From Verrucomicrobiota bacterium (lineage in GTDB: Bacteria > Verrucomicrobiota > Verrucomicrobiia > Limisphaerales > UBA11358), in assembly GCA_049517655.1 (NCBI GenBank), contig JBEKRQ010000003.1:132906-196905 (forward strand): a stretch of 64,000 bases of DNA, written 5' to 3'. A program made the translations under genes and the position numbers. This document shows positions 38,591 through 41,854 of this stretch, piece after piece; within the stretch, counting starts at the first letter, position 1; each line of letters starts with the position of its first letter. The notes below the pieces were generated by a model that had not been told where the DNA came from, searched no databases, and saw nothing but the letters and a program-made list of their open reading frames with translations.

Positions 38591-39358
38591 TCACGGCAGA
38601 CGCCAGATGCCGTGTTCGACGTGAAGCAATAATCCGGCGTCGCGCAAGACTTGGAGTTGTTGGCGAATCTTATCTTTGACGTGCCGATTGTCGGGATGAA
38701 GTTTTTCCAACTCGTGGGTGAAGACGTAAACATTTTCGTTGGTGAATTCCGTTTTTCCCAAGCGACGGACGATATTCAAAACGTCCAGCGTCCAGCCGCG
38801 TTCTTTGGCTTTGATTTCGCCAAGTGGTTTGACGCGTCGGAATTTCTCGCGGACTTCATTCTCCGGCGTAACTCGACTTTCCGTGACCACAGCAATTCGT
38901 GCGTCAACTGGAATCCGATTCAAAGCAAAGTTGCATCCAATCCAACCAGCGCGTCTTGCTGTTGGCGAAAGCGGTTTTCGTTTGATGATGGCTGACGGCG
39001 GAAAAGCAAAATATGGAACAAGTAACAAATTTCTAACTCTCCAAGTTGCCAAGTCGTAGTGTAGAAAATAGAAGTTCGGAGTTCGGTCGTTTTTAATTGC
39101 TTCCATCATTGCGCCATAAGCGCCATCCGTGATGGAACTGCCGATTCGTGTCTTTTGGCTTTTTAGCTGATACCAAAATCCGCAATTCGGGCAGCGATAG
39201 TCATTGGCTTTCGTGTTCGGTTTGAGCCAATCCAATTTTGGTGAAGAACAATTTGGACAATAAAAATTATCAGCGCCCCAAGCTTCTGTGACATTTCCAG
39301 CCTTTTGCGAACCGCTTTTGTAAGTGGCTGCAAGTTCGCCAGACATGGAAAGCTTCAC
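38591..39358 (-). CDS. DpnI-like (methyl-directed type IIM family) restriction endonuclease homolog
   Basis: Collinear with my recollection of S. pneumoniae DpnI: TYKSxSQKA, YCPNC...CPNC, LKS, DGAY..MM, PNF.FL.Y, RKPL.PTARRAGWIGCN. C-terminal winged helix ...KIRQQLQVLRD. GTG start. Confidence 0.8.
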   Translation of the reverse strand: MKLSMSGELAATYKSGSQKAGNVTEAWGADNFYCPNCSSPKLDWLKPNTKANDYRCPNCGFWYQLKSQKTRIGSSITDGAYGAMMEAIKNDRTPNFYFLHYDLATWRVRNLLLVPYFAFPPSAIIKRKPLSPTARRAGWIGCNFALNRIPVDARIAVVTESRVTPENEVREKFRRVKPLGEIKAKERGWTLDVLNIVRRLGKTEFTNENVYVFTHELEKLHPDNRHVKDKIRQQLQVLRDAGLLLHVEHGIWRLP

Positions 39359-39389
39359 GCGCTGATTAGATCAACGCGGCTGCAAAGAC

Positions 39390-40817
39390 TCAACTCGATT
39401 TCACGCGAAAGATTTCTGTTTCGCAGCGGACGACGTGCGTTGTTTCCCGTTTCTTACCAGTCGGTGTTTTAGCCCATGCCTCCTGCAAACCTACGTCAAC
39501 AGTCGTGTGAACGACCGCGCCGCGCTCGACCTCGGCGCATGAAAGAAACACGAACTTGCATTCGTGAAAGATGCGCTCGGTCGGCACTTGCGGTTTGTCG
39601 TCCATCGAGCGCGATCCATTGATCGAATCGGAAAACAGATCAAGATCATTTTGAGAAAAAACTGAAACTTCAATTCTTACTTGGAAATTCCGCAACCAAA
39701 TCAAAACGATTTCCCGTTCGGCGCGTTTGGCCGTCAGCGTGAGGTAGGCGAAGTTCAATTCAATTCCGACGCAGCCGCGTTTGATGTGGAGCGCGGCGAT
39801 GGCGGTTGTTCCGCCGCCGAGAAACGGGTCGAGAACCAAATCGCCTTCGTTGGTCGAGGCCAACAGGCAGCGTTCAACCAGCGCAATCGGTTTCTGAGTA
39901 GGGTGCTTGCCGAAAGCTTTCTCGCCGTTGGACGGAGAAGGAAGCGTCCAGACGGACGAGAAAGAGGAGTCAGGAGTATGGAGTAAGGAGGAAGTGTCAG
40001 ATTCTTGCTCCCTGCTCCTTGCTCCTTCATCCTTCGTCGCGCTGGCGACGTCTCTCCACACGGTTTTCATCTGTTTGCCGGTGACTTTCCGCATTTCCTG
40101 ATAGTTAAATACGTGTTTACTTTTTTCATTTTTGGCCGCCCACAGAACGGTTTCAGTTGAGTGCGTGAAATAGCGGCAGCTCAAGTTCGGCGGCGGATTG
40201 GGTTTTTCCCAGGCGATGTCGTTGAGGATTTTGTAGCCGAGTTGTTGCAGGGCATAGCCGATGGAGAAAATGACGTGATGCGTGCCGCTCACCCAAATCG
40301 TTCCGTTGGGTTTGAGCACGCGCTGACAGCGTCGCAGCCATTCGAGATTGAATTCGTGGTTCAGTTCCGGTCCACGCGATTTATCCCAGTCGCCTTTATC
40401 GACCTTCACCATTTTGCCGGCGTGACAGGTGATGCCGCCGTTGGACAAGAAATACGGCGGGTCGGCAAAGATGGCGTCGAACCGGCCATCGGGATATTTG
40501 GTGGCGATGGCGTCGAGGAGTTCGAGACAATTACCGTGGTAAAGCCAGAGGCCGCGCGCGGAATCAGAGTAAACAAGGCGCGGCAGGCCAGAAGCCGGAG
40601 GTCGGAGATCGGACTTCTGACTTCCGATTTCTGACATCTGAACAATTGAGCCGTCTTCGCGAAGTTTGAAATGCGCGGAGGTCAGAGGTCGGAAGGCGGA
40701 TGCCGGATGCCGGAGGTCAGAGGTCTGACTTCTGTCTTCTGTCTTCCGGCTACCGGGTTTCGGCGGCTTGGATTTGTAGAACGAGCGGCGTTTGGTTGGT
40801 TTCGACTTTTTCGGCAC
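39390..40817 (-). CDS. beta-class N6-adenine (or N4-cytosine) DNA methyltransferase, DpnA/M2.DpnII-like
   Basis: FADPPYFLSNGG ... DKGDWDK ... NLSCRYFTHSTET ... GKHPTQKP ... LDPFLGGGTT. The start is uncertain (GTG 40817 or ATG 40637). The N-terminal part, an internal loop and the ~110-aa C-terminal tail are non-canonical. Confidence 0.82.
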   Translation of the reverse strand: MPKKSKPTKRRSFYKSKPPKPGSRKTEDRSQTSDLRHPASAFRPLTSAHFKLREDGSIVQMSEIGSQKSDLRPPASGLPRLVYSDSARGLWLYHGNCLELLDAIATKYPDGRFDAIFADPPYFLSNGGITCHAGKMVKVDKGDWDKSRGPELNHEFNLEWLRRCQRVLKPNGTIWVSGTHHVIFSIGYALQQLGYKILNDIAWEKPNPPPNLSCRYFTHSTETVLWAAKNEKSKHVFNYQEMRKVTGKQMKTVWRDVASATKDEGARSREQESDTSSLLHTPDSSFSSVWTLPSPSNGEKAFGKHPTQKPIALVERCLLASTNEGDLVLDPFLGGGTTAIAALHIKRGCVGIELNFAYLTLTAKRAEREIVLIWLRNFQVRIEVSVFSQNDLDLFSDSINGSRSMDDKPQVPTERIFHECKFVFLSCAEVERGAVVHTTVDVGLQEAWAKTPTGKKRETTHVVRCETEIFRVKSS

Positions 40818-40822
40818 GCCCA

Positions 40823-40949
40823 GATCAATTGATCAGATCACACTTTGAGATCAAGGCATTTTCAGAGCACTTGAATGGAGTACGGAATGGCACACCGGGA
40901 TCAACTCCGATAAATCGCGAGCGGGTTGATCAGAAGAGCGGATCGGATC
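40823..40949. promoter_or_regulatory. cluster of eight GATC sites upstream of the methyltransferase/DpnI-like operon
   Basis: GATC at 40823, 40831, 40836, 40849, 40899, 40928, 40941 and 40946. The first two form the perfect palindrome GATCAATTGATC. Confidence 0.6.
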
Positions 40950-41089
40950 AAGGGAATTCCTGCCGCAAAAAGGCACAAAAGTCTCAAAGAATTTCTTTTG
41001 CGCATTTTGCGACTTTTGGCGGCAAAGATTTTTATCCTTTGTGTTCTTTGCGTTCTTTGTGGTTAAGCCGCATCCGTGTCCAAGAACTT

Positions 41090-41608
41090 TTATTTTTCTC
41101 CCTTGTCGCCGGTAAGATACCGTTCGATGTGGCGGTCGAGGTCGGAAAGGGCTCCGGCACAAGTCGCGGCCTGCACGCGCTCCACCATTTCAAAGCACCA
41201 AGCCTCTTCCTCCACCTGTTCATTGATGAACCACTGCATGAGAACCTGCGCCGGGTAATCCCTGGCGCCAAGGGCGGCTTCGTAAACCGAATTGATGCCT
41301 TGTGTGTTGGACTGTTCCATGGCTTGTGCGTGACTGGCCACTTCGAGGAGCGACTTGAAATCGTACTTGGGCGCGGCGATGGCAGTTGTCTTCGGCATTG
41401 CATCGCGGTCAATAATGTGGGCGCTGATTTTCTCCGCGTGAACGTGTTCTTCGGCAGCCTGTTTGGCGAAATAACCCGCAAAGCCAGTCAAGTTCTGGGC
41501 CTCACACCAGATGGACAAGGCACGATAACTGTGGGCGGCACTGAGTTCCTGATTAAACTGGCGGTTGAGTTCGGTTAGCACTTTGGCGGGGATTTTAGAG
41601 GGATGCAT
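41090..41608 (-). CDS. ftn: ferritin
   Basis: LNRQFNQELSAAHSYRALSIW...EEHVHAE ferritin-like di-iron motifs. ATG at 41608 preferred. Confidence 0.85.
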   Translation of the reverse strand: MHPSKIPAKVLTELNRQFNQELSAAHSYRALSIWCEAQNLTGFAGYFAKQAAEEHVHAEKISAHIIDRDAMPKTTAIAAPKYDFKSLLEVASHAQAMEQSNTQGINSVYEAALGARDYPAQVLMQWFINEQVEEEAWCFEMVERVQAATCAGALSDLDRHIERYLTGDKGEK

Positions 41609-41854
41609 AGTTATTCTTTTGTTGGTTTCCTTATGCACCAGATTGGTGCCAATAGCAAGCATGCACTTGCCGAAGAACATGCCCGCTTCGCTGATGATTT
41701 TCACACAACTGCCTTCGCGCGAGTGGCGCTACGGCGCGTCAAGAAGACGCAAAGACGCAGATGTTTGAATCGCGCGAAGGCCGCGACGGTTGCGAAGGAT
41801 TTTGAAGAATTATTTCCCCTTCGTGTGCTTCGTGTTCTTCGCGCGAAACTTTTC

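Follow-up and report, generated by a model that had tools for sequence, protein, structure and literature searches.

In enterobacteria, transcription can depend on the methylation of DNA. Examples of Dam-sensitive promoters or GATC clusters include pIN of IS10, dnaA P2, the pap and agn43 switches and SeqA sequestration. The leader of ccrM itself carries GANTC sites, and the dam gene is not known to have a GATC-packed promoter. In the methyl-directed enzyme R.DpnI, the methyl pocket is made of Leu129, Arg135, Trp138 and Gly140, and the residues that read the sequence are Gln18 and Arg126. Its active site consists of D53, E64 and K66, and the substitution E64A abolishes cleavage (PMC3424567); Glu64 is a ligand of the metal, which in turn positions the attacking water (PMC4117772). 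The control of methylases through the methylation of promoters has been described as "apparently rarely used" in a 2025 review (PMC12707154). In CfrBI, the promoters overlap, and once a single site in them is methylated, the methylase is transcribed less and the nuclease more (bioRxiv 10.64898/2025.12.04.692298; PMC12707154). In Caulobacter, the beta-class adenine methylase CcrM is accompanied by GcrA, a reader of methylated sites at sigma-70 promoters (PMC4647560). The same paper cites the OxyR and Lrp switches, where transcription depends on the methylation state of GATC.

Here we analyzed a cluster of GATC sites located between a ferritin-like gene and a DNA methylase gene in a window of 64 kb (the whole stretch of DNA under study) of a Verrucomicrobiota genome. 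These genes are found on the minus strand in the order ferritin-like gene, GATC cluster and methylase, with a DpnI-family gene 31 nt further. Our literature search found no described pair of a methylase and a DpnI-like protein, no inactive DpnI homologue and no description of this cassette.

A unique cluster of GATC sites

A preliminary description of the window reported eight GATC sites ahead of the methylase gene, the first two of them forming a palindrome. All eight were recovered by a check of the sequence (positions 40823, 40831, 40836, 40849, 40899, 40928, 40941 and 40946), as was the palindrome GATCAATTGATC. The cluster had also been placed just before the longest possible methylase frame; this frame begins with the GTG at 40817, and five nucleotides (40818-40822) separate it from the nearest GATC. 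We found no GANTC within the cluster sequence.

The density of these sites had been presented as exceptional, and the host genome (2.29 Mb, 7 contigs) fully agrees with this view: its other 127-bp stretches hold at most five GATC, as compared to eight here. The motif is depleted overall. The 64-kb window contains 169 GATC versus 276 ± 16 in dinucleotide-preserving shuffles, and the genome contains 5708 (2.49 per kb), with a ratio of observed to Markov-expected counts of 0.58, which makes GATC its second most depleted 4-bp palindrome after GTAC. A cluster of eight GATC has a Poisson expectation of 2e-4 per genome and eight sites were reached in 1/2000 random placements. A chance origin of the eight-site cluster is excluded. 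Genome-wide counts further revealed that similar clusters are not common in the intergenic DNA of the host, and that tight clusters of at least four GATC number only four, two being those of the cassette and two being located within long open frames. As a separate observation, the most depleted 4-bp palindrome, GTAC, has an observed/expected ratio of 0.32, a hint that a restriction system specific for GTAC acts, or once acted, on this genome; for CTAG the ratio is 0.67.

The stretch 40820-40955 is present as a single copy in the genome and dispersed repeats are found on its flanks (blastn). The cluster was rejected as a dispersed repeat or MITE on these grounds, since it is single copy and the repeats are confined to the flanks. 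Likewise, we rejected a replication origin or SeqA-type cluster: dnaA is located 224 kb off (C3:397 kb), there is no GC-skew extremum at 173.7 kb, and the cluster accompanies the cassette in other phyla. The DNA from the ferritin stop codon to the GATC cluster includes a repeat of low copy number (3-5 in the genome) at 40960-41060, in which CACAAAG/GCAAAAG motifs abound; a similar motif is found ahead of the cluster of another locus (L019).

The methylase and its start codon

The methylase belongs to the CcrM-like beta class (Table 1) and its best solved relative is CcrM (6pbd, E=1e-48). It scored 206 bits against the NCBIfam CcrM equivalog NF050803, which is below the 830-bit cut-off. The protein presents a basic N-terminus (MPKKSK...), in-frame repeat-derived segments and a 71-aa C-terminal domain. 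The ATG at 40637 was initially considered as the start codon, given that the CcrM homology begins later and that the first 60 codons are partly composed of REP-like repeats, within which a hairpin is found at 40711-40734. This candidate was rejected and the start was assigned to the GTG at 40817, because relatives keep a GTG/ATG and the MPKK tail directly after the cluster. Indeed, the last GATC is located 5-7 nt before the first in-frame GTG/ATG in 11 Verrucomicrobiota-type rows, the window's included, and in the relatives the protein read from the start right after the cluster opens with the conserved basic sequence MPKK(S/A)K.... Relative to CcrM, an insert of ~30 aa separates the methylase domain's two halves (39966-40032). 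Similar in-frame repeat-derived inserts are found in the inter-domain linker of several DpnI-like relatives (e.g., P0013 and P0048).

GATC is indirectly supported as the putative target of the methylase. When palindromic tetramers were counted upstream of the methylase, only GATC was enriched (2.6-fold), the others ranging from 0.55 to 1.29. The methylase is nearest to CcrM, a GANTC enzyme, rather than to a proven GATC enzyme.

Table 1. Features of the cassette and its flanks in the 64-kb window.
Feature	Position	Strand	Description
Ferritin-like gene	41090-41704	-	
Distal GATC cluster	40899-40949	-	four sites, spacing 5, 13, 29; alignment A2
Proximal GATC cluster (element A)	40823-40854	-	four sites, 40823-40852; spacing 13, 5, 8 in gene direction
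Proximal cluster parts	TTGATC (-35-like) 40854-40849; GATCAATTGATC 40834-40823	-	sequence and comparative alignment
Beta-class N6/N4 DNA methylase, CcrM-like	39390-40817	-	475 aa; GTG start 40817; PF01555 E=3.5e-56
REP-like palindromic dispersed repeats	40580-40750		15-22 genome copies (blastn); in frame in methylase 5' part
Cluster B (element B)	39613-39647	-	four GATC, spacing 6, 17, 8; linker between methylase core and C-terminal domain
Methylase C-terminal segment	39393-39605	-	71 aa; alignment A3: 59-94% identity, 25 invariant columns
Predicted promoter of the DpnI-like gene	39365-39393	-	TTGAGT 39393-39388, 17-nt spacer, TGATCTAAT box 39373-39365
DpnI-family gene	38591-39358	-	255 aa; PF06044 E=5.6e-58, PF17726 E=6e-24

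Architecture of the upstream element

The alignment resolves the eight sites into two groups of four rather than one array (Table 1). The distal cluster was found to be a degenerate duplicate of the proximal element: it contains an insert of ~25 nt exactly at the palindrome centre, and a remnant of the tgggcGTGcc start comes after it. The same interrupted distal copy is present at another locus (L005). Half of the eight sites therefore represent an old duplication, and the distal four sites may constitute an auxiliary operator or a relic. As judged from the alignments, the conserved core element is composed of the proximal four sites only.

Across Verrucomicrobiota, the consensus of the proximal element is CTTGATCcGATCcgcnnttcTGATCAATTGATCTGGGCGTG, or CTTGATCcGATCcgcnnttcTGATCAATTGATCTGGGC with GTG coming next. 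The motifs that contain GATC, namely CTTGATC and TGATCAATTGATC, are kept in it, while the spacers are variable. The proximal group of the window matches it except that the second GATC is shifted, a feature shared with one of the relatives (L006). In ~20 Acidobacteriota loci, a canonical TTGACA is located 13 nt upstream of GATCAACGATC, often with a third GATC after it. One GATC is found there just upstream of the -10-like hexamer AACGAT and another one overlaps it, with the standard spacing of 17 nt. GATC pairs separated by 4-8 bp recur in all versions of the element.

By analogy to the Acidobacteriota loci, the TTGATC of the window would correspond to the -35 element and GATCAATTGATC to the -10 region, an assignment made by comparative alignment. 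GATC sites would then coincide with the -35-like TTGATC and the -10 region in the window; in Acidobacteriota, they lie 13 nt past TTGACA. A scan of 39300-41200 for consensus sigma-70 promoters returned no match, and the proposed -10-like hexamers of the Verrucomicrobiota version do not possess the usual A at position 2. Leaderless mRNAs are predicted here, and one that begins with GTG is unusual. The proximal cluster is the predicted core promoter/operator of the methylase gene. The preliminary description had placed the cluster where the promoter or operator of a methylase/DpnI-like operon should be, and the comparison agrees with this placement, since GATC clusters recur at this position in relatives from several phyla.

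A second cluster and the predicted promoter of the DpnI-like gene

Another GATC cluster, cluster B, is located within the methylase gene and is built like the upstream element (GATCTTGATC ... GATCAATGGATC), with a conserved in-frame start 7-8 nt later. In the window this start is an in-frame ATG (39605), 7 nt past the cluster. The same spacing of sites was found in four other loci (L001, L002, L006 and L015), and equivalent clusters are present in Acidobacteriota loci and in a metagenomic locus (L083). The 71-aa segment encoded downstream of cluster B is well conserved (Table 1); it has no Pfam match and its AlphaFold model is of low confidence (pLDDT 64.5, pTM 0.35). This segment may be made as the C-terminus of the methylase and also as a separate small protein.

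A third element precedes the DpnI-like gene. It contains a single GATC at 39369. The -35-like TTGAGT overlaps the stop codon of the methylase, and the GTG start of the DpnI-like gene is located 6 nt past the TGATCTAAT box, whose sequence is found in one copy in the host genome. This region looks like a leaderless promoter. A tGATCTAAT box is present 6-8 nt before the start in ~30 of 58 Gln64-type loci (i.e., loci whose DpnI-like protein has a glutamine in place of the catalytic Glu64) across phyla, and is absent from all four Glu64-type loci that were examined. In Verrucomicrobiota, a TTGA-type -35 is found 17 nt upstream of this box.

A DpnI-like protein with an altered active site

The product of the downstream gene aligns with R.DpnI (4esj/4kyw) over 246 residues (E=1e-61; D53, Q64 and K66). 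It possesses an N-terminal catalytic-type PD-(D/E)XK domain with a Cys4 zinc site, as well as a winged helix at the C-terminus. All the residues expected to form the methyl-adenine pocket and the GATC contacts are present (L130, R136, W139 and G141, with Q18 and R127). More broadly, the protein retains Q18, E25, D53, K66, R127, L130, R136, W139 and G141. The catalytic triad Asp53/Glu64/Lys66 is not intact, however, as Glu64 is replaced by Gln. This substitution is invariant in an alignment of 15 sequences and is found in 78 of 80 loci; among 115 representatives of the DpnI family, 63 have Gln64 and 50 have Glu64. We did not find any compensating acidic residue for Gln64 in the family comparison. 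Position 87 alone co-varies, with Ala accompanying Gln64 and Arg accompanying Glu64, and the window protein has Ala87. On a FastTree phylogeny of 88 representatives, which was midpoint-rooted and weakly supported and from which no direction of change was drawn, the two states were clustered without being cleanly separated (7 changes versus ~29 for shuffled labels).

By its fold, the protein is a member of the DpnI family, with a nuclease activity that is not assured. It is a candidate reader of methylated GATC, and a binder of m6A-GATC would fit both the pocket and the Glu64-to-Gln replacement. Similarly, these features fit a Gln64 protein that would recognize methylated GATC with both domains and cut it poorly or not at all. 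Poor or no cutting would make the coexistence with a GATC methylase viable. Because E25, D53 and K66 are invariant in the Gln64 proteins, some residual catalysis is possible; their conservation is a hint that these proteins do more than bind.

About half of the Gln64-type loci have no adjacent methylase. Among five genomes with such a solitary gene, the cassette methylase was found in none and a clear Dam in one, but these are MAGs and absence constitutes weak evidence. The solitary genes argue against an orthodox nuclease cutting unmethylated GATC and show that the protein has a role beyond the regulation of the cassette methylase.

Conservation of the cassette across phyla

The cassette consists of the GATC cluster, the methylase, the linker GATC cluster, the TGATCTAAT box and the DpnI-like gene. 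Using one genome per species, we collected 80 loci with DpnI-like relatives, mostly from Verrucomicrobiota and Acidobacteriota. A relative of the methylase was found upstream on the same strand in 37 of them, most often directly adjacent. Three GATC elements are recurrent: A before the methylase, B in the linker before the last ~70 codons, and C, a single GATC ~14 nt ahead of the DpnI-like start. The window carries all three (A 40823-40852, with B and C as given above). Within 300 nt upstream of the methylase, at least three GATC per 40 nt were found in 24 of the 33 loci with enough upstream sequence (73%), as compared to 1.0% of the background (1639 segments from the same loci). This enrichment is highly significant (Fisher p ~2e-35), although the test was not corrected for shared ancestry and the counts overstate the independent support. 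Three loci that scored zero have the cluster placed further upstream. Despite the shared ancestry, the identity of the methylases goes down to 44% and the spacer sequences differ. A metagenomic Gln64-type locus with 42% identity (L083) presents the same three GATC elements.

The methylase itself can be exchanged. In a Methylacidiphilum MAG (L009, 1-1430), the place of the cassette methylase, ahead of a Gln64 DpnI-like gene, is taken by a Dam-family (D12) methylase (239 bits against TIGR00571, cut-off 115). Five GATC are found 7 nt before its start, which encodes a similar basic N-terminus, and three more just inside the ORF. At three divergent loci, one with a D12-class methylase (L011) and two with N6_N4-class methylases (L066 and L075), the cluster is located within the shared intergenic region. 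This exchange and the divergent loci indicate that the element follows function and not one methylase lineage. Among the indirect arguments for GATC as the putative target of the methylase, the exchange is the strongest.

Several loci present additional genes or unusual compositions. A different small ORF, encoding a Cys4 zinc ribbon, is located between the methylase and the DpnI-like gene of the Methylacidiphilum MAG. An XRE-like HTH ORF is found directly upstream of the Gln64 DpnI-like gene with the divergent D12-class methylase (L011:2250-2730); this C-protein-like arrangement would be odd for a harmless reader. At another locus, a BglII-family endonuclease gene directly precedes the Gln64 DpnI-like gene (L078:5224-5952), the BglII site AGATCT containing GATC. 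Two loci from Pyrinomonadaceae MAGs (L016 and L017) have 5-7 GATC in 12.7 kb, four of which form the cluster ahead of the cassette methylase. Finally, a Glu64-type DpnI gene was found in an operon with an N6_N4 methylase, DndB and an unknown gene (L081:97-3957). This locus has no GATC cluster and its GATC density is high (5.7 per kb), also inside the DpnI gene.

Discussion

We propose that transcription of the methylase gene, within a conserved cassette, is controlled from the cluster and that this region is methylation-sensing and autoregulatory, a reading to which we assign a probability of about 0.6. The putative GATC methylase and its DpnI-like partner would probably sense and limit their own methylation through the cluster. 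The position of the element, its uniqueness in the genome, its conservation, its specificity for GATC and its link to the Gln64-type relatives are direct observations. We infer that the methylase acts on GATC, that methylation of the element affects transcription and in which direction, and which protein is the sensor. Under this model, the cassette methylase would modify GATC and its own core promoter would be saturated with that target, such that its transcription would fall once the promoter sites are fully methylated. The shut-off could occur by two routes: RNA polymerase might bind the methylated -35/-10 elements poorly, or the promoter might be occluded by the Gln64 DpnI-like protein, which has kept both methyl-GATC-binding domains and could bind to the methylated sites, which are close to each other. 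The two domains of DpnI reach the DNA from different sides, the catalytic-type one through the minor groove and the winged helix through the major groove; on geometric grounds, two GATC half a turn apart might be held by one DpnI-like molecule on one face of the DNA. An unmethylated or hemimethylated promoter, as expected after replication or in a naive cell, would fire again. Through cluster B and the TGATCTAAT box, the same signal would reach the small domain and the DpnI-like gene. The preliminary description went further in proposing an epigenetic switch, which implies bistability. This goes beyond the evidence and a simple negative feedback fits as well. The autoregulation that it suggested is otherwise the best available reading, the functional steps being predictions.

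Several other explanations can be considered. The closest one is a direct effect of promoter methylation, as for CfrBI, where methylated -35/-10 elements would lower the binding of RNA polymerase and the DpnI-like protein would play no role at this site. It overlaps with the autoregulation proposed above and the sensor is the sole difference. The coincidence of GATC with the -35-like and -10-like elements is compatible with this mechanism, which CfrBI operates with a single site, and some methylases are controlled solely via the methylation of their own promoter (PMC12707154). One or two sites would be enough, yet four to eight close sites are conserved; in addition, the element and the TGATCTAAT box track the Gln64-type DpnI relatives, including at loci with the other methylase class. 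We consider this explanation possible but less likely. An orthodox GATC restriction-modification system appears improbable. In such a system, the Gln64 enzyme would cut unmethylated GATC, the methylase would provide protection and the clusters would time the expression of the methylase first and of the nuclease later. The gene order is indeed typical of restriction-modification operons, GATC is depleted in the genome (0.58) and drastically so at the two Pyrinomonadaceae loci, and the XRE-like HTH gene found before one DpnI-like gene, next to a divergent Dam-class methylase, resembles a C protein. The methyl-binding pocket (L130, R136, W139 and G141) is nevertheless invariant, the catalytic Glu is gone without compensation, and many Gln64 genes are solitary, with four of five such genomes lacking a clear GATC methylase, a situation that would be lethal. 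The depletion of GATC does not discriminate between the models, because genomes that encode methyl-directed DpnI-like enzymes are also reported to typically avoid GATC (PMC4687349).

It is also conceivable, and in our view about as improbable, that the Gln64 protein slowly cuts methylated GATC. The promoter would then keep the methylase near-silent or phase-variable such that the two states are mutually exclusive, or the induction of the methylase would trigger abortive infection. The invariance of D53, K66 and E25 in the Gln64 proteins and the GATC within the -10-like box of the DpnI-like gene leave room for this scenario, and complementary DpnI/DpnII populations exist in pneumococcus (PMC4687349, PMC12707154). 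We saw no sign here of bistability or of residual nuclease activity, and since the methylase and the DpnI-like gene are 31 nt apart on one strand, read-through would co-express both. Finally, the element might have no regulatory role and represent a relic of cassette recombination, a site for RNA-level pairing of GAUC with the GAUC located 5' of the 16S anti-Shine-Dalgarno, or an origin/sequestration site. The distal half is a degenerate duplicate and the GATC spacing to the three start codons is Shine-Dalgarno-like (GAUC 5-8 nt before each). Against these ideas, the GATC-bearing motifs are kept while the spacers vary, the cluster persists in GATC-poor genomes, and its position is fixed relative to TTGACA in Acidobacteriota, where leaders reach ~100 nt; all three points argue for selection at the DNA level. 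An origin is further contradicted by the distance to dnaA (224 kb) and by the lack of a GC-skew turn here. We find this last set of explanations barely credible.

We consider the predicted control element to be real, conserved and GATC-specific. Control by self-promoter methylation is known from few cases and would occur here in an elaborate multi-site form, with three GATC elements, one per coding start, that were kept across phyla and across a swap of methylase class. The cassette pairs a putative GATC methylase with a relative of an enzyme by which methylated GATC is destroyed. Should the Gln64 protein read without cutting, the pair would constitute a compact bacterial writer-reader circuit, and a large part of the database annotations as "DpnI restriction enzyme" would be functionally wrong. 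As a tentative extension, which we hold to be possible but doubtful, the Gln64 branch of DpnI (approximately half of the family representatives) might be a natural reader of fully methylated GATC instead of a restriction nuclease, forming a writer-reader feedback module together with a GATC methylase and multi-site operators. Under this same tentative extension, the GATC methylation state of the cell would be set by the module and perhaps also remembered, and the module would be spread over Verrucomicrobiota, Acidobacteriota and other phyla.

How the cassette relates to known systems

The nearest known mechanism is that of CfrBI, in which the system's own recognition sequence is present in the methylase promoter, as it would be here with GATC as the putative target. 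CfrBI, however, relies on one site and has divergent genes with an orthodox nuclease, whereas the cassette of the window combines 4+4 sites with two more GATC elements further downstream; its genes are co-directional and the partner belongs to the methyl-directed DpnI family. It is also widespread, in contrast to the rarity attributed to this type of control. CcrM and GcrA constitute the nearest pair of a writer and a methylation-sensitive factor, and CcrM, a beta-class adenine methylase, is the closest solved relative of the window methylase. The target of that pair is GANTC, and GcrA is an activator that is unrelated to DpnI and is not encoded beside ccrM. As in the enterobacterial systems, GATC sites in -35/-10 elements or in clusters would tie transcription to the methylation state. 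The enterobacterial sites control other genes via Lrp, OxyR or SeqA, proteins with a preference for non- or hemimethylated DNA; unlike them, the candidate sensor of the window should prefer fully methylated sites. R.DpnI and the window protein have in common the two-domain architecture, the zinc site, the methyl pocket and the recognition helix of the winged helix. R.DpnI, which is part of a pneumococcal cassette, has Glu64, is an active nuclease and is found in dam-minus hosts without GATC methylase, whereas the window protein has Gln64 and Ala87 and is encoded next to a methylase. Overall, the cassette differs from these systems by its multi-site architecture before three starts, its wide phylogenetic spread and its DpnI-family partner.
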